64,000 nt of DNA from Escherichia phage UP19, in sequence record OX638288; one strand, 5' to 3'. The notes beneath the pieces were generated by a model, which was not told the DNA's origin, searched no databases, and worked only from the letters and a program-made list of their open reading frames with translations. Within the stretch, counting starts at the first letter, position 1. Every line of letters starts with the position of its first letter. The position numbers and the translations under genes were made by a program. This document shows, piece after piece, positions 4,789-61,188 of the stretch.

Positions 4789-5687
<899 letters not shown>

Positions 5688-5698
5688 TTTAAAAAAGG

Positions 5699-5741
5699 TG
5701 TTTACAAGGTCTATAGACATGATACTATAGGCCTATCAAAA
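5699..5741 (+). promoter_or_regulatory. early promoter / stem-loop cassette (PeSL-like)
   Basis: GTTTACA, 16-17 nt spacer, TACTAT, then conserved core tataggcctatcaaaac; member of a repeat family. Confidence 0.6.
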
Positions 5742-5765
5742 CAAACCAACCACATGGAAATCAAA

Positions 5766-5990
5766 ATGAAAACTTATCAAGAATTTATTACAGAAGCTAA
5801 AAAACACGAAGACCAACTGCCGGTTGTTACAAAAACCTTTGACGGTACATTGGCCGATTTTAAAAAAGTCCCTAGTGATAAGCTCGCTAAATTGGCCGGG
5901 AGTATCGGTGAAAAAGATGGCAAGGTCACGTTTTCTGCTCAAGGTACAGCCAATCTTAAAAAACTTTTGAAAGCCGCTGGCGCAGAATAA
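5766..5990 (+). CDS. internal-protein-like protein (CTS MKTYQEFITE)
   Basis: ATG 5766 after SD ggaaa; N-terminus MKTYQEFITEA; position equals T4 ipI locus. Confidence 0.65.
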   Translation: MKTYQEFITEAKKHEDQLPVVTKTFDGTLADFKKVPSDKLAKLAGSIGEKDGKVTFSAQGTANLKKLLKAAGAE

Positions 5991-5991
5991 A

Positions 5992-6264
5992 ATGAAAACT
6001 TATCAAGAATTTATCGCTGAATCTATTCTTAATGAGGAAGTAAAAATTAACAAATCTGTTAAGACTATGATTGATAATATAAATCATCTCTATAACATCG
6101 ATTTGACTAATCATGTAACTTTAGGCAATAAGCTAAACTTTTTTGTATTCGATACTTCAGAACTCGACCAAAATCAAATCAATAATATTGAACGCTTTGC
6201 TAATGACAAAGGGCTTCGTCACGAAACAGCTGGCTATAAAAAATATGCAATTTATCTAAAATAA
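5992..6264 (+). CDS. internal-protein-like protein (CTS MKTYQEFIAE)
   Basis: 90 aa; N-terminus MKTYQEFIAES identical to the T4 IPIII-type CTS. Confidence 0.65.
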   Translation: MKTYQEFIAESILNEEVKINKSVKTMIDNINHLYNIDLTNHVTLGNKLNFFVFDTSELDQNQINNIERFANDKGLRHETAGYKKYAIYLK

Positions 6265-7684: not shown

Positions 7685-7813
7685 GAATTATGTGATATTA
7701 TTACTCTATCATTAATACCCTCTATTACCAAAGGTTCTTCCCTCAAAGAGCCTTTCATAATAGACAAGGTCTATTAATCAAACTTACTTTACTTAATTTT
7801 ATTTGAGGTGTTT

Positions 7814-8080
7814 ATGTTAGTATTAAAATTAGCTTTTTATGACCCAGAAACCAAGACAACAACTACTAAACGTTGTTCTATTTCATATGAATGCCAATTT
7901 GGCGAAGTTGAGACCGACGGCGAGCCCTTTATGGCAATTGCCGATAGCACATTCGCTAAACCAAAAATAATTCCACTAGTTAATGCTGCGGCTTATCTGG
8001 TTGCTCCTGAAGAAATGACTTATCATACAATTCAGCACATGGCTAAAGATGATAATGCTCCTGCTGGATTTGTAATTTAA
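7814..8080 (+). CDS. hypothetical protein
   Basis: ATG 7814 after SD gaggtg; 88 aa; ends 5 nt before first tRNA. Confidence 0.5.
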   Translation: MLVLKLAFYDPETKTTTTKRCSISYECQFGEVETDGEPFMAIADSTFAKPKIIPLVNAAAYLVAPEEMTYHTIQHMAKDDNAPAGFVI

Positions 8081-8085
8081 ATTAA

Positions 8086-8159
8086 GGCCCTGTAGCTGGA
8101 CGGTCAAGCGAGCGACTCATAATCGCTGGATGGTGGTTCGATTCCACCCAGGGCCACCA
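8086..8159 (+). tRNA. tRNA, anticodon CAU (Met or lysidine-Ile)
   Basis: Perfect 7-bp acceptor stem ggccctg/cagggcc; anticodon arm agcga-ctCATaa-tcgct; T-arm ggtgg-ttcgatt-ccacc; encoded CCA. Confidence 0.75.
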
Positions 8160-8163
8160 ATTT

Positions 8164-8238
8164 GGATGTGTAGCTCAGCGGTAGAGCAGTTGACTGTTAA
8201 TCAATTGGTCCATGGTTCGAATCCATGCATGTCCGCCA
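8164..8238 (+). tRNA. tRNA-Asn (GUU)
   Basis: D-arm gctc-agcggta-gagc; anticodon loop ctGTTaa; T-arm catgg-ttcgaat-ccatg; encoded CCA. Confidence 0.8.
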
Positions 8239-8242
8239 AATA

Positions 8243-8318
8243 CGAGGCATAGCTCAGAAGGAAGAGCAACGGTCTTCTAAACCGTAGGTCGTAGGTTCGA
8301 TCCCTACTGTCTCGACCA
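8243..8318 (+). tRNA. tRNA-Arg (UCU)
   Basis: Anticodon arm acggt-ctTCTaa-accgt; T-arm gtagg-ttcgatc-cctac; encoded CCA; T4 also carries tRNA-Arg(UCU). Confidence 0.8.
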
Positions 8319-8490
8319 AACAAGAAACCGGGTCGCTACCGGTAAGTCGTCGGACTGAAGCTCCCTGAATAAGACCCGACTTTAAGGCGTACATGAGTTG
8401 ACCTCTTAAAGTCCCTTATCTCACAGCTGAAACGGCGCACAGAACACTTGCCTAGCAGGTGGAACCCCGACAAGGTTACCCTAGGTTAAA
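8319..8490 (+). ncRNA. structured small RNA downstream of tRNA cluster (candidate analogue of T4 rnaC/rnaD stable RNAs)
   Basis: About 170 nt with no credible ORF, GC-rich paired segments, same transcript as tRNAs, followed by a terminator. Confidence 0.4.
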
Positions 8491-8518
8491 GGCCCTTCCG
8501 AAAGGTTGGGCCTTTTTT
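8491..8518 (+). terminator. rho-independent terminator
   Basis: ggcccttccgaaaggttgggcc hairpin followed by T6. Confidence 0.7.
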
Positions 8519-8519
8519 G

Positions 8520-8527
8520 TATAAATA
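8520..8527 (+). promoter_or_regulatory. late promoter TATAAATA
   Basis: Exact TATAAATA directly after terminator, 27 nt before ORF 8554. Confidence 0.6.
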
Positions 8528-8553
8528 TACAGTAAACTAACTTAGGAAATAAT

Positions 8554-9108
8554 ATGAAACTTTTAAAATATTTGAGTTGGATTCTGTTGGTCCCACTAGA
8601 TTTTATCTCTATGGTTCTAGCCGTTATCCTTGCGCCTTTTGTGGTTCCTTTTCATAATAAAAAGACTGGTAAATTGCCATACGGTTTTGATTGGATGATG
8701 ACATACGATAATCCAATTGACGGCGATAAAGGTCATATTAAACGTTGGGCTAAAATCAGGAAAATGCCTGGTGGTGTTTATCTCCAGAGAGTAGCTTGGC
8801 TATGGCGAAATAAAGCTTATAACTTTGCTTATCATAAACTAGGCCGTGATTGTAGCTCGGAATTCCATTATCGTGGTAATCCTGACGTAGAATCAGGTTC
8901 TCCTGATAAAGCTCACCATGGTTGGTTGTGGATGTGGAATGATGACGCCTGGGGTGTATTTGCTTCAGTTCCTTATCTTAAGGTCGGCGGAATCACATTT
9001 TACCTTCGCGTGTACTGTGGCTGGAAGCTTAAGAGTCTTTTGTCTCGTAAAATCCCTAAAGCTATGTTGGCCTTCCACGTGAACCCGTTCCGGTTCTACA
9101 AGAACTGA
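8554..9108 (+). CDS. late-expressed membrane-anchored protein, unknown function
   Basis: 184 aa; N-terminal TM helix; preceded by late promoter; flanked by duplicated terminator/late-promoter modules. Confidence 0.6.
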   Translation: MKLLKYLSWILLVPLDFISMVLAVILAPFVVPFHNKKTGKLPYGFDWMMTYDNPIDGDKGHIKRWAKIRKMPGGVYLQRVAWLWRNKAYNFAYHKLGRDCSSEFHYRGNPDVESGSPDKAHHGWLWMWNDDAWGVFASVPYLKVGGITFYLRVYCGWKLKSLLSRKIPKAMLAFHVNPFRFYKN

Positions 9109-9112
9109 TTTA

Positions 9113-9139
9113 CGGCCCTTCCGAAAGGTTGGGCCTTTT
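9113..9139 (+). terminator. rho-independent terminator (second copy)
   Basis: Near-identical ggcccttccgaaaggttgggcc hairpin plus T5. Confidence 0.7.
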
Positions 9140-9140
9140 T

Positions 9141-9148
9141 GTATAAAT
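9141..9148 (+). promoter_or_regulatory. late promoter TATAAATA
   Basis: Exact TATAAATA, about 30 nt before ORF 9178. Confidence 0.6.
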
Positions 9149-9177
9149 AGATAAGTTAATTAACACAGGAAACAATA

Positions 9178-9795
9178 ATGAAAACTTACAATGAATTTTT
9201 GAACGAAAGCGTTCTGAATGAAGCCGGCGTGCGCATGACTAAAGATATGTGGCAAGCTGCTTATGATAAAATTTCCGGGACTAAAACCACTACCGAGTTC
9301 TTTAAAAACGTTTATGATATGTATGGTTTTGATACTAGTAGCCAGAAAGAATATTACAAAGCTTCCAAAGCTTTTAAAGATATCGTAGCCGGTGGCTCTA
9401 CTAAGCCTGCTAAACCAGCTAAAGCTCCTGTTTCTAAACCCGCGGCTCAGACCAAAGTTGCAGCACCGAAACCTACACCTAAAGCAGAGCCTGTAAAAGA
9501 AGCTCCTAAACCTAAAATCAAGTTCGACACCAGCACTATTGTTAAAAAATATAACCAGCTGGCTTCTTTAGTGTCGGAAATCGAATCCGAAACTAAACAA
9601 CTTGTTCGAGAATTCAATGTTCTTCGTAATGGTCAACACATTAACAACCTAGATACCCCGGACCTCTATCGTCTTTACCTGACGGTTGAAGGCCTTAAGT
9701 ATACCCAGCCTATGCACGAAGAAATTGATAACAAACTTCGTCAAGCCCGCCGCCTTGCAGGTGACGCCGCTCAGTTCGAAAAGACCCGTAAATAA
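9178..9795 (+). CDS. internal-protein-like protein (CTS MKTYNEFLNE) with basic Ala/Pro/Lys-rich linker
   Basis: 205 aa; N-terminus MKTYNEFLNES; KPAKPAKAPVSKPAAQTKVAAPKPTPKAEPVKEAPKPK low-complexity segment; late promoter upstream. Confidence 0.65.
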   Translation: MKTYNEFLNESVLNEAGVRMTKDMWQAAYDKISGTKTTTEFFKNVYDMYGFDTSSQKEYYKASKAFKDIVAGGSTKPAKPAKAPVSKPAAQTKVAAPKPTPKAEPVKEAPKPKIKFDTSTIVKKYNQLASLVSEIESETKQLVREFNVLRNGQHINNLDTPDLYRLYLTVEGLKYTQPMHEEIDNKLRQARRLAGDAAQFEKTRK

Positions 9796-9800
9796 TGAAA

Positions 9801-9820
9801 GGAGACTTCGGTCTCCTTTT
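9801..9820 (+). terminator. rho-independent terminator (UUCG tetraloop)
   Basis: ggagac-ttcg-gtctcc followed by tttt. Confidence 0.7.
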
Positions 9821-9854
9821 AGGGGGTTTAATCTAAAAATAATTTCACAAAGTT

Positions 9855-9895
9855 GTTTACACCTCCTTTAAACGTGATACTATAGACCTATCAAA
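9855..9895 (+). promoter_or_regulatory. early promoter / stem-loop cassette (PeSL-like)
   Basis: gtttacacctcctttaaacgtgatactatagacctatcaa; upstream cctcctt complementary to downstream SD aaggagag. Confidence 0.6.
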
Positions 9896-9918
9896 ACAAC
9901 AGAGTGAAGGAGAGTAAA

Positions 9919-11782: not shown

Positions 11783-12069
11783 ATAAAATTGAAATTGAAA
11801 TCCCTGAATACAACGACGAGAAATCTGCAGAAAAAGCTATCTATGCTCTTCTGAATAAAGTAGATACCATCGAACATGAATGTGAAGCTATTGCTGATAA
11901 GTACGGTATTCAATTCGGAACAGGTGATTATGGCTCAGGACGTACATACTACCCTGTTGGTTATGAATGCTCCCAGTGGTTTAAAGATGAAATTGAAAAC
12001 AATGGTGGTGAAGTTGAAAATGGCGTCGTTACAGTTGGTGCCTGGATCTCCTCTTCAGCATTATGCTAA
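11779..12069 (+). CDS. tandem paralog family member A (C-terminal W-x-SSS-x-C)
   Basis: 96 aa ending ...GAWISSSALC; first of five consecutive paralogs. Confidence 0.6.
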   Translation: MNKIEIEIPEYNDEKSAEKAIYALLNKVDTIEHECEAIADKYGIQFGTGDYGSGRTYYPVGYECSQWFKDEIENNGGEVENGVVTVGAWISSSALC

Positions 12070-12078
12070 GGAAACGCT

Positions 12079-12360
12079 ATGATGAATGATAATCATAACC
12101 ACCCAGAGCTTCTGGCCGCAGTAAAAGAAATTCATGAAGCTATTCGTCGTGCCGAGGAAATTGCAGACAAATATGAGACTCATTTTAATATATACCCTGC
12201 TCGCGGTATGGGCGGTGACTATTATTCTCCTGGCGCCCTGAAAGCTGACCTAGCCCACTGGGAAGAAGATGGTCATCCTGAATGGGCTATTGTTAATACT
12301 CATGACTATACAACTGACCTGGAAAATGGTGGTTGGGTGTCCTCTTCTTCTGAATGTTAA
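12079..12360 (+). CDS. tandem paralog family member B
   Basis: 93 aa ending ...GGWVSSSSEC; shares IADKY and GDY motifs with member A. Confidence 0.6.
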   Translation: MMNDNHNHPELLAAVKEIHEAIRRAEEIADKYETHFNIYPARGMGGDYYSPGALKADLAHWEEDGHPEWAIVNTHDYTTDLENGGWVSSSSEC

Positions 12361-12369
12361 GGAAATATT

Positions 12370-12567
12370 ATGTCTCGTGAATTAGATTGTGCAATCCGTA
12401 CTGCCGCCGCGGCTATTGAAAACGTTATCCAGATTTGCAAAGAAGAACGTGAAGAAGCTGATATCTATATCGATGGTGTTCGTGACCTGGAACGACATAT
12501 CACGCTTTACAATGGTTGTATTACAATTAGTGGTACCTCTTGGGTGTCCTCCTCTTACGAATGCTAA
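12370..12567 (+). CDS. tandem paralog family member C
   Basis: 65 aa ending ...TSWVSSSYEC. Confidence 0.6.
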   Translation: MSRELDCAIRTAAAAIENVIQICKEEREEADIYIDGVRDLERHITLYNGCITISGTSWVSSSYEC

Positions 12568-12576
12568 GGTAATAAA

Positions 12577-12789
12577 ATGACTATTGATGAAATTGAAAAA
12601 CAAATCCGTGAATTAGTACGTAAAGGCCAGTCCGTGGCTGATGAAACAGGTGAAGAGTTCCATGTTTCCGGTCGTGGACAATACATTTCTCCAAAGAATC
12701 CGGAATATGATGATTACGAATGGGCCCGTGATGATTACGGTATCCCAGATGGTGAAGGTTTCTGGTTTACATCCTCTATGTCTTGCTAA
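12577..12789 (+). CDS. tandem paralog family member D
   Basis: 70 aa ending ...FWFTSSMSC. Confidence 0.6.
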   Translation: MTIDEIEKQIRELVRKGQSVADETGEEFHVSGRGQYISPKNPEYDDYEWARDDYGIPDGEGFWFTSSMSC

Positions 12790-17152: not shown

Positions 17153-17647
17153 ATGGATATTTTTGATATGTTACGTCAAGACGAAGGTCTTGATTTAAAT
17201 CTTTATAAAGACACTGAAGGTTATTGGACTATTGGTATTGGCCAGTTAGTTACCAAGAACCCATCTAAAGATGTTGCTCGTGCCGAACTTGACAAACTTA
17301 TGGGTCGGGTTTGCAATGGACGTATTACTATGGCTGAAGCTGAACAACTCTTTAACCGTTCAGTGGAAAATGCTCGTAGAGCTATAATGCGTAATCCTAA
17401 ATTGAAACCGGTTTATGATGTGCTGGACGAAGTTCGTCGTTGCGCGCTGATTAATATGGTCTTTCAAATGGGTGAAGCTGGTGTCGCTGGATTTACCAAC
17501 TCTCTGCGTATGCTCCAGCAGAAACGTTGGGATGATGCCGCAGTTAACCTGGTGCAGTCCCGTTGGTATAAGCAGACTCCGAATCGCGCTAAGCGAGTTA
17601 TCTCTACATTTAAAACAGGAACTTGGAAAGCATATGAAAACCTATAA
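17153..17647 (+). CDS. e: endolysin, T4 lysozyme family
   Basis: 164 aa [13 protein letters not shown]...[13 protein letters not shown]...; Glu11/Asp20 context conserved; clear T4 lysozyme homolog. Confidence 0.95.
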
Positions 17648-17903
17648 AGAATTTTTGGCCGAATCTCAACTGAACGAAAACACTGACCTAGACCGTATGA
17701 CATTCCTGGCTAAGAAAGGCGGCTTCGAATTTAAAGCCATTAAGAAAGTAAATGGGTATTCTTTTGAAGTCGGTGAATATACCTTTGGTAACAAGGGTGA
17801 TGGCCAGTGGCAAATTGTTAAAAACGGCAAAGAAGTAGACTACCTTTTCGGTAAGAAACTTAGTGACATTGCTAAAATAATGGGCGAATATTCTAAAAAA
17901 TAG
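17634..17903 (+). CDS. internal-protein-like protein ([13 protein letters not shown])
   Basis: ATG 17634 overlapping end of e; N-terminus [12 protein letters not shown]; position like T4 ipIII/ipII. Confidence 0.65.
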
Positions 17904-17943
17904 TTTACATCTCCTGTATGCATGATATTATAGACCTATCAAT
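17903..17943 (+). promoter_or_regulatory. early promoter / stem-loop cassette (PeSL-like)
   Basis: gtttacatctcctgtatgcatgatattatagacctatcaattacaggaga; arms tctcctgta / tacaggaga. Confidence 0.65.
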
Positions 17944-17959
17944 TACAGGAGATTACAAA

Positions 17960-18376
17960 ATGACTCGTATCAACCTTACCTTAGTATCTGAATTGGCTGA
18001 CCAACACTTAATGGCTGAATACCGTGAATTACCACGTGTTTTCGGTGCAGTTCGTAAGCATGTTGCTAACGGTAAACGTGTTCGTGATTTTAAAATCAGC
18101 CCTACTTTTATCCTTGGTACAGGCCATGTTACATTCTTTTATGATAAGCTTGAATTTTTACGTAAGCGACAAATTGAGCTTATAGCCGAATGTTTAAAAC
18201 GTGGATTCAATATCAAGGATACTACTGTCCAAGACATTTCCGATATTCCACAGGAATTCCGTGGTGATTATATTCCTCACGAAGCTTCTATCGCTATTTC
18301 ACAAGCCCGTTTGGATGAAAAAATTGCACAGCGTCCTACCTGGTACAAATATTATGGTAAGGCTATTTACGCTTAA
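17960..18376 (+). CDS. denV: endonuclease V, pyrimidine dimer glycosylase/AP lyase
   Basis: 138 aa [34 protein letters not shown]...; essentially identical to remembered T4 endonuclease V. Confidence 0.95.
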
Positions 18377-18418
18377 TTAAATCCGTGATAGAATACTTCT
18401 ATCAACTTAAGGAATAAT

Positions 18419-18718
18419 ATGAAAACTTATCAAGAATTTATTACAGAAGCCAAAGCTCCTAAAGCATTCCAAATAGGTGTCCAAGGCACCTTAGACCAAG
18501 AATATGTTGATGCTATTGTAGCAAGCCTCGGTAAACAGGGCGTACAAGTGGATTTGGTTGATTTTACTAAAGGTAATACTTTTAATATTGTTACATCTAA
18601 AGGCTCTTTAGCTAAAGTTAAAAAGGCCTTTGGTGTAGCCCAAGCATACGAAATCGACCACTCTGAATTAGAAAATAAAGGTCGCCAGAATACAATTAAA
18701 GGTTCTGGTTCTTTCTAA
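18419..18718 (+). CDS. internal-protein-like protein (CTS MKTYQEFITE)
   Basis: 99 aa; first 32 nt identical to ORF 5766. Confidence 0.65.
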   Translation: MKTYQEFITEAKAPKAFQIGVQGTLDQEYVDAIVASLGKQGVQVDLVDFTKGNTFNIVTSKGSLAKVKKAFGVAQAYEIDHSELENKGRQNTIKGSGSF

Positions 18719-59516: not shown

Positions 59517-59780
59517 ATGAATATTCAAATTATGAAGCCTGTTAAAAGTGGCTTTTGGGACCGGTCTTTCGGTAAGCATAAGATTTATGCAGATCGTATT
59601 AACAGTCGCTGGGAACTTGTCCTTTCTCAGGAAACTAAAGGTGAAATGGATTTTGTAGAGTTCTACGAATTTACTGTTCGTCCTACTAAGCGCCAGATTC
59701 GTCAGTGCAAAAAAGCTTTTCGTGCTTATGTCGGCGGTGAGGTTCTCCGTCGTCAACGTCGTCTGATAATGGAATCATAG
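59517..59780 (+). CDS. hypothetical basic protein, paralog of ORF 60602
   Basis: Shares VRPTKRQIRQ-KKA-R motif with 60602..60823. Confidence 0.5.
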   Translation: MNIQIMKPVKSGFWDRSFGKHKIYADRINSRWELVLSQETKGEMDFVEFYEFTVRPTKRQIRQCKKAFRAYVGGEVLRRQRRLIMES

Positions 59781-60601: not shown

Positions 60602-60823
60602 ATGTTTGTTTTAACTCAATTCTCTAAAGCGGTATATGGTTACTCCTGCCAGTGGGAAGTCTTTATTGATTCTCCTTCACCTAAGTATGGTGTTTTTGGA
60701 CGAGTAACTACTCAAGCTTATGTTGTACGGCCAACTAAGCGCCAGCTTCGTAAACTTAAAAAGGCCCATCGTAAACTGATTAAAAGAAGGGAACAATATG
60801 AGTGCAATGTGTACGGGCTCTAA
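60602..60823 (+). CDS. hypothetical basic protein, paralog of ORF 59517
   Basis: VVRPTKRQLRKLKKAHRK motif. Confidence 0.5.
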   Translation: MFVLTQFSKAVYGYSCQWEVFIDSPSPKYGVFGRVTTQAYVVRPTKRQLRKLKKAHRKLIKRREQYECNVYGL

Positions 60824-61005: not shown

Positions 61006-61188
61006 ATGAAATCTTTTAAAGAAGTTATGAACGAAGATATGGTCGCAGGCGATGCAGGTGGAAACCCATCTAATATTGCCTCCGGAACTACCTCAGGTGC
61101 AGTTGTCAACAAAGGGCCTGAACAAATCCCATCTAAAAAGCGTAAAGAAAATCCGAAAACGAATGATATAATGGCTCTATTAATTTAG
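61006..61188 (+). CDS. small protein with CTS-like N-terminus (MKSFKEVMNE), candidate packaged peptide
   Basis: 60 aa; N-terminus follows the M-K-S/T-F/Y-K/Q-E-x-h-x-E pattern; late promoter upstream. Confidence 0.5.
   Translation: MKSFKEVMNEDMVAGDAGGNPSNIASGTTSGAVVNKGPEQIPSKKRKENPKTNDIMALLI

Follow-up and report, generated by a model that had tools for sequence, protein, structure and literature searches.

The 64,000-nucleotide (nt) stretch of Escherichia phage UP19 considered here (sequence record OX638288; its whole length is referred to as the window) carries a gene of 184 amino acids (aa), at 8554–9108, that is bracketed by two near-identical modules, each made up of a hairpin, a T-run and a match to the T4 late-promoter consensus. 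The region around the modules shares 97.7% identity with Escherichia phage JS98 and 99.6% with EcWhh-1, which identifies the window as Dhakavirus, a T4-like phage. The annotated gene order of JS98 at this place is trna.4, trna.3, trna.2, orf138, orf137, three transfer RNAs (tRNAs), orf136 (the counterpart of the bracketed gene), orf135, and e.8. In the window, all on the + strand, a cluster of tRNA-Met, tRNA-Asn and tRNA-Arg (8086–8318; ARAGORN and Rfam tRNA matches) is followed by a non-coding stretch (8319–8490) whose 3' end abuts the first hairpin, by the bracketed gene with its two modules, and by an internal-protein-like gene (9178–9795), which is the second variable cassette of the locus. 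Among related phages, in three genera and at two loci, insertions and deletions (indels) have their junctions exactly in these repeats.

The 22-nt sequence GGCCCTTCCGAAAGGTTGGGCC opens both modules and is identical at 8491–8512 and 9114–9135. With up to 3 mismatches allowed, the window has no further match, and 100 shuffles gave an expectation of 0. Hairpin 1 is followed by T6 (8513–8518) and hairpin 2 by T5 (9136–9140), and GTATAAATA stands directly after each T-run (8519–8527 and 9141–9149). The modules, 37 and 36 nt long, differ by one T only, and for this reason the full pattern with T5 matches the second copy alone. The original prediction had placed two near-identical modules around exactly one gene, and the 22-nt hairpin, T-run and GTATAAATA at both sites bear this out, while its boundaries for them (8488–8527 and 9111–9148) were off by 1–3 nt. 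Both hairpins (GGCCC-TT-CC-GAAA-GG-TT-GGGCC) form a 5-bp GC stem, a 2x2 U·U internal loop, a 2-bp stem and a GAAA tetraloop, with folding energies of -15 to -18 kcal/mol (z about -3). A built-in terminator scan missed them because of the internal TT/TT mismatch; a separate scan recovered them. Nine hairpin variants from relatives keep the stem through compensatory changes at two pairs (GC to CG and GC to AU, in either direction): five have GC and four have CG at pair 2-21, and pair 1-22 occurs as GC, AU or GU. The observed covariation score was reached by 1 of 500 shuffles. By its sequence, the hairpin with its U-run is an intrinsic terminator: hairpin 1 with T6 (8491–8518, +) would end the unit of tRNAs and stable RNAs, and hairpin 2 with T5 (9114–9140, +), a recurrent rearrangement junction, would be the terminator of the unit that contains the bracketed gene. 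Concerted evolution of the two copies was considered and is not clear-cut, as JS98-type phages have two GGCCC hairpins, the Mosigvirus PHB12 two GCCCC hairpins, and IME341 and fDHCT2 a mixed pair; the hairpin copies of AnYang, KIT01 and NC-G differ in the outer pair.

The T4 late-promoter consensus, TATAAATA, is a -10 sequence without a -35 element and is read by the gp55/gp33-modified polymerase. Copy 1 (8520–8527, +) precedes the ATG of the bracketed gene by 26 nt and copy 2 (9142–9149, +) precedes that of the next gene by 28 nt, spacings that, like the sequence, fit a promoter of this type; both start codons have a Shine-Dalgarno-like GGAAA. The hairpin fills the position that a -35 hexamer would take, and only the late consensus TATAAATA follows it; early-promoter modules stand elsewhere (e.g., 9836–9903). 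In the window as a whole TATAAATA occurs at chance level (8 sites, 7.6 expected), and a strong hairpin precedes 2 of the 7 + strand sites, namely these two modules. The late-promoter motif is also conserved at the homologous site in other genera. In Tequatrovirus Lutter and other T4-like contigs, the order hairpin, T-run, (A)GTATAAATA is kept at the 3' end of the post-tRNA stretch, and the authors of the Lutter genome annotated a terminator and a promoter in the homologous element. This conservation at the same place suggests that copy 1 serves the tRNA/stable-RNA unit as its resident terminator and whichever gene follows as a late promoter. Late expression, and the proposal that copy 2 drives the gene at 9178, are predictions from the match to the TATAAATA consensus.

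The bracketed gene (8554–9108, +; protein start MKLLKYLSW) is the sole open reading frame (ORF) between the modules. Its product matches the Pfam family DUF7338 (PF24027) over residues 1–183 with 212.6 bits against a cut-off of 27, and PF24027 was recovered in 38/38 of the homologues found. A hydrophobic N-terminal segment (Kyte-Doolittle 19-residue maximum of 2.45 at residues 9–27) coincides with an AlphaFold helix at residues 2–33, in agreement with the N-terminal transmembrane (TM) helix that had been proposed for this protein; a beta-sheet domain forms the C-terminus. The gene thus encodes a TM protein and carries no capsid-targeting leader.

The locus was compared with the GenBank phage collection, in which a BLAST search with window positions 8437–9240 and the junction of phage CLB_P2 against 50,697 phage records gave 62 records from ~45 distinct phages; the sequences of 18 records were examined individually at the locus. 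Scans of IMG/VR with the hairpin and with the 3' end of the stable-RNA stretch added few T4-like contigs, and contigs encoding the exact 184-aa protein added no further architecture. The arrangement of the window (type A: stable RNA, module, DUF7338, module, internal protein) is shared by JS98, IME281, EcWhh-1, Esco_phi_B-01, MN04, NC-G, AnYang and KIT01. Type B, with one module and then the internal-protein gene, is found in CLB_P2, dhaeg, dhabil, IME08, SHP1 and C6. To its left, the type B module has the flanking sequence of copy 1, and to its right that of copy 2, and the empty site matches in one piece (181/181). Since this module joins the outer flanks, the DUF7338 gene is absent exactly from repeat to repeat. 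In type E (JS10, MX01, IME540, LQ5, PSD9, LHE83) the module and the DUF7338 gene are followed by the hairpin with its T-run and then by an early promoter. Type C (vB_EcoM_005, QL01, WG01, E33, UGJNEcP3/4) has the reversed gene order, with a module, a 157-aa internal-protein variant, a different terminator, DUF7338, the hairpin and an early promoter; type D (IME341, fDHCT2, PSD2002) is as type C, with an internally deleted DUF7338 gene (8570–9057). Phage FB has neither gene, its stable RNA being followed by the hairpin with T6, an early promoter and e.8, and its difference from JS10 or MX01 is a presence/absence bounded by the hairpin alone. JS10, of the DUF7338-only type, and JS98, of the two-gene type, encode an identical 184-aa protein, which indicates that the rearrangements are recent.

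Expressed in window coordinates, the breakpoints cluster at 8520, 9114 and 9140, that is, at the edges of hairpins and T-runs, as well as at 9832–9843. For instance, homology ends at 9140 for JS10, MX01, QL01, vB_EcoM_005, IME341, fDHCT2 and PSD2002, and resumes at 9114 for CLB_P2. In Gaprivervirus, a unit of late promoter, DUF7338 and a different terminator is present in VR20 and missing from VR7. At both ends of this indel stands the 13-nt direct repeat GGGCTTTTTTATA, which is all that the two different hairpins involved have in common. In VR5, a deletion begins in the 5' half of hairpin 2, and its other end is a similar TTCGAAAAG close to the 3' terminus of the internal-protein gene.

A second locus with the same unit is found in Mosigvirus. 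In phage PHB12, rI is directly followed by a DUF7338 homologue with 75% aa identity, which has GCCCCTTCCGAAAGGTTGGGGC-T5-GTATAAATA on its upstream side and, downstream, the same hairpin with T7 and an early promoter. The unit of hairpin, late promoter, DUF7338 and hairpin stands after rI in 23/155 Mosigvirus records. Among the matches listed, nearly all other Mosigviruses, including RB69, match in two pieces that span 877 instead of 1501 bp and are thus 624 bp shorter, and the hairpin-to-hairpin spacing of the DUF7338 unit is 623 bp. In RB69, one hairpin joins the left and right flanks of PHB12. Two genera thus show presence/absence polymorphism of a hairpin-bounded late-gene unit, each at a different resident terminator. 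The idea put forward in the original prediction, that the gene is a cassette gained or lost by recombination between the repeats, is supported by its presence or absence exactly at the repeats in six Dhakaviruses, in FB, in Mosigvirus and in the VR7/VR20 pair.

The copies could also be nothing but the same favored terminator and promoter, without a causal role, with the clustering of junctions reflecting the survivorship of breaks that fall between genes. The hairpin does serve as a plain terminator at conserved sites. A third exact copy in JS98 (EF469154.1, 113544–113565; L048, about 1245–1266) lies between the convergent genes orf181 (uvsW.1) and uvsY.-2, where it has no late promoter and would be a plain, probably bidirectional, terminator; the hairpin after rI in RB69 is another such case. 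Identical 22-mers in unrelated viral contigs, the chance-level count of TATAAATA and the rearrangements that ignore the repeats fit this explanation as well. On the other hand, each empty site, in three lineages, joins the outer flanks through one exact copy, where random breaks would leave partial or doubled modules; the identity of the copies extends to the unpaired TT/TT and loop positions, which are not needed for function; and the junctions lie inside a homology block of 13–37 nt, not anywhere in spacers of 45 to 70 nt. Survivorship without a role for the repeats is accordingly unlikely. The proviso attached to the original prediction, that the repeats might be a standard terminator of the phage without a link to gene presence, is thus right in part, as the uvsW.1/uvsY.-2 and rI sites illustrate, and does not overturn the cassette reading; the link to gene presence or absence is direct, and a JS98 genome has only three hairpin sites. 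Apart from this, identical hairpins of the GGCCC/GCCCC kinds were seen in terminator-like positions in viral contigs unrelated to T4-like phages (L005 at 4085, L013 at 547, and L060, L062, L063 and L065); an identity of 22 nt is too long for chance, so that these hairpins are either convergent or horizontally spread.

These data suggest that the module is probably a composite of terminator and late promoter which insulates monocistronic late genes and at the same time provides portable homology for the phage recombination or annealing machinery. Copy 1 would act as the terminator of the tRNA/stable-RNA unit and as the late promoter of whatever gene follows, and copy 2 would end the DUF7338 message and restart late transcription for the internal-protein gene. 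As each copy would first stop and then restart transcription, each gene would be an insulated monocistronic late unit. The duplication in direct orientation, together with identical hairpins at other terminators, provides 13–37 nt of portable homology. An exchange between the two copies would delete the DUF7338 gene and release a circle of about 623 bp, and the reverse reaction, or an unequal crossover between co-infecting relatives, would insert or reorder cassettes. For instance, the arrangement of JS98 and the window would result from one unequal crossover, with hairpin 2 contributed by a JS10-type phage and hairpin 1 by a CLB_P2-type phage.

Several observations weigh against this interpretation. 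The internal deletion of type D (8570–9057 in IME341, fDHCT2 and PSD2002) bypasses the repeats, the T-run lengths range from T5 to T7, and the junctions are equally compatible with gain and with loss of the gene. Some of the clustering of breakpoints could come from survivorship, since only junctions in intergenic regulatory sequence leave a viable phage. A recent transfer of the cassette between genera was considered and rejected, as DUF7338 of Dhakavirus and Mosigvirus are 75% identical at the aa level and tk of the same genera 70%. The DUF7338 gene also occurs without two flanking repeats in vB_EcoM_005, QL01, VR5 and VR20, and without the repeats in Karamvirus, RB43-like phages, Slopekvirus, Gelderlandvirus and Felixounavirus. 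Related genomes that carry the gene without repeats had been named beforehand as an argument against a cassette; this is partly the case, and it does not overturn the cassette reading.

The hairpin itself might be a structure-specific recombination site, comparable to the attC site of integrons, with the hairpin or a cruciform recognized by a phage or host enzyme and with circles as the moving form. A hairpin-bounded unit at two different loci in two genera, a hairpin conserved with compensatory changes, and a combinatorial array of cassettes behind a fixed promoter-bearing site would all be expected of such a system, and mini-circles likened to integrons have been reported for the related PeSL elements (PMC2839356). 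However, the cassette neither contains nor adjoins an integrase- or recombinase-like gene, its neighbors being homologues of Trna.2-4, e.8 and e.6; the covariation is equally explained by terminator function; and homology, not a specific site, is what VR20 and VR7 point to, where different hairpins share only GGGCTTTTTTATA, and likewise VR5, where the microhomology at TTCGAAAAG is fortuitous. Junctions at the 13-nt tail of two different hairpins and at a fortuitous microhomology indicate a homology-driven process rather than a dedicated site-specific system, and an attC-like site is very unlikely. Somewhat less doubtful, although still improbable, is that the hairpin is a portable docking site, such that any identical terminator in the genome can capture a circularized unit of late promoter, gene and hairpin, possibly aided by an enzyme. 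If this were true, capture could take place after the stable RNAs, after rI and between uvsW and uvsY, a structure-specific enzyme might assist on the hairpin or cruciform, and T4-like phages would own integron-like, self-expressing late-gene cassettes that hop between loci and genera.

Homing endonucleases of the seg/mob type, which occur in the tRNA region, offer a further explanation, in which break repair with co-conversion drives the polymorphism and the repeats are bystanders. Genes for homing endonucleases are annotated in or next to the tRNA cluster of AnYang, IME540 and LHE83, and published work reports that SegB drives the preferential inheritance of the tRNA region of T4 (as cited in PMC4122927). 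Yet JS98 and JS10 appear without homing endonuclease genes in the tabulation of PMC2993671, and the Mosigvirus indel at rI lies outside the tRNA region. Moreover, co-conversion accounts for the spread of alleles, not for junctions inside the repeats or for a swapped gene order. This explanation is highly improbable, and homology between terminator–promoter modules remains the preferred reading.

The neighborhood of the modules contains further variable elements. The non-coding stretch between the tRNAs and hairpin 1 (8319–8490, +) has no ORF and no Rfam family, a search of 7700–9900 against Rfam having returned tRNAs only. It folds with z = -2.5, has its homologue in the post-tRNA region of Tequatrovirus Lutter (L019, 2176–2490) and of all Dhakaviruses, and is probably the equivalent of the T4 stable RNAs. 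Several Dhakaviruses have ~145–250 extra nt at window position 8441–8443. A homing-endonuclease gene lies in the tRNA cluster, or replaces part of it, in AnYang (L050, 273–938), IME540 and LHE83, just upstream of the locus.

On the right-hand side, the gene at 9178–9795 (+) encodes an internal-protein-like product of 205 aa (phrog_2280). Its N-terminus, MKTYNEFLNE, fits a family of capsid-targeting-type N-terminal repeats with six members in the window, as had been predicted for this gene. Such N-termini (MKTYQEFI.E and variants) are found at 5478, 5766, 5992, 9178, 17634 and 18419, possibly also at 61006, and fall into three loci. The classical T-even internal-protein (IP) loci reportedly lie next to 57B or between e and denV. 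Loci of the classical type occupy about 5478–6030 and 17634–18454 in the window, and gene 9178 is outside both. The gene is absent in JS10, MX01 and FB and is replaced by variants of 154–157 aa in vB_EcoM_005, IME341 and Lutter; among relatives, alleles of 205–207, 157 and 154 aa stand behind the same leader. Its unit would be ended by a second type of terminator-like hairpin, AAAGGAGAC-TTCG-GTCTCCTTT (9798–9820, +), the palindrome of which was also detected on the - strand by the terminator scan. A PeSL-like early-promoter module (GTTTACA...GATACTATAG...; 9836–9903, +) follows ahead of e.8 and forms the right-hand junction of the internal-protein cassette, as homology with JS10, MX01, FB and vB_EcoM_005 resumes at 9832–9843, the start of this module. 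At least 12 copies of this PeSL-like module (50 to 70 nt; GTTTACA...TGATACTATAGACCTATCAA) are spread through the window (5699, 6268, 9854, 14880, 17896, 20190, 24313, 27424, 27736, 29135, 58796 and 59807), many of them with palindromic spacers and some with a terminator in front (24278, 58776, 63338). Two other kinds of repeat were noted in the window. A 48-nt intergenic repeat occurs three times (12042–12089, 12333–12380 and 12540–12587; 291 and 207 nt apart) and ends in a ribosome-binding site and ATG, forming repeated leader modules before small ORFs. Two copies of a 49-nt coding repeat (59675–59723 and 60724–60772; 1049 nt apart), which are 73% identical, point to a pair of paralogous genes.

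Composite promoter and stem-loop elements are well documented in T4-type phages. PeSLs, which combine sigma-70-like early promoters with stem-loop terminators, recombine in a manner that explains indels between RB49 and phi1 and makes mini-circles (Arbiol et al., 2010; PMC2839356), and they have been extended to T4/PST and KVP40/nt-1, including a middle-promoter form, PmSL (Comeau et al., 2014; PMC4122927). A late-promoter version is not mentioned in these papers ("late promoter" occurs 0 times in PMC2839356 and "late" 0 times in PMC4122927), and literature searches on DUF7338, and on JS98/JS10 with "internal protein", returned nothing on this cassette. Like PeSLs, the elements described here are composites of a stem-loop terminator and a promoter, with hairpin, T5/T6 and TATAAATA contained within 36–37 nt. 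They are direct repeats around variable ORFs, mostly of unknown function, in hyperplastic regions, a small circle would be expected, and indels, replacements and changes of order have their junctions inside the repeats, as in the empty sites of the CLB_P2 type, FB, RB69 and VR7. The two differ in that the promoter here is the late-class TATAAATA without a -35 element, instead of a sigma-70-like early or Mot-box middle promoter; in that a specific 22-nt hairpin with a GNRA loop is common to Dhakavirus, Gaprivervirus and Mosigvirus, with variants in Tequatrovirus; and in that one cargo cassette occupies two different loci. The module is thus a late-promoter analogue of PeSL cassettes, which works alike and lacks the promoter feature by which PeSLs are defined.

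According to PMC2839356 and PMC4122927, analogous elements had been described at the two IP loci of T-even phages (Repoila et al., 1994; EMBO J 13:4181); as summarized in PMC2839356, they are built on T4 early promoters and have stem-loops that are weak and AT-rich, and IP genes were suggested to occur at these two loci only. Both there and here, leader-bearing cassettes vary in number, order and identity, with flanking repeats proposed to mediate the shuffling (as described in these citing papers), and the gene downstream of copy 2 carries a capsid-targeting-type leader. In contrast to that description, the repeats of the present locus combine a GC-rich terminator with a late promoter, and the bracketed DUF7338 gene has no capsid-targeting leader. 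In addition, the present locus, between the tRNA/stable-RNA cluster and e.8, is a third one that bears an internal-protein gene. Integrons are similar in having an array of promoter-proximal, exchangeable single-gene cassettes separated by imperfect hairpin-forming repeats, with circular intermediates being conceivable. They are dissimilar in that the junctions here are explained by short homology, the hairpin doubles as a terminator and each cassette has its own promoter; a search for an integron integrase found no recombinase among the neighboring genes and no PADLOC or NCBIfam matches. Finally, deletions in laboratory mutants of T4 are described as ending at GGGC/GCCC motifs in the 56-dda region (Mosig et al., 1998, as cited in PMC2839356). 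Going by that citation, those endpoints likewise fall, within non-essential regions, in the GC-rich arms of small inverted repeats, a form that GGGCTTTTTTATA of VR20/VR7 also has, whereas the present cases are natural polymorphisms with longer identical repeats of 22–37 nt.

Plasticity in T4-type genomes has been proposed to come mainly from the shuffling of promoter/stem-loop cassettes, which has been documented for early and middle versions, mostly in single pairs of phages. The present locus adds a late-promoter version of such a cassette, a full series of natural states across ~45 Dhakavirus and Gaprivervirus genomes (none, either gene alone, both, and either order), and a second polymorphic site of the unit in another genus (23/155 Mosigvirus records). 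It also flags DUF7338 as a dispensable and frequently exchanged membrane protein that is predicted to be late. To a T4 specialist, the locus is a clean and extensive natural example rather than a surprise. It offers a convenient, testable system for the way in which short terminator repeats may drive the gain and loss of genes in lytic phages, including those used in therapy.

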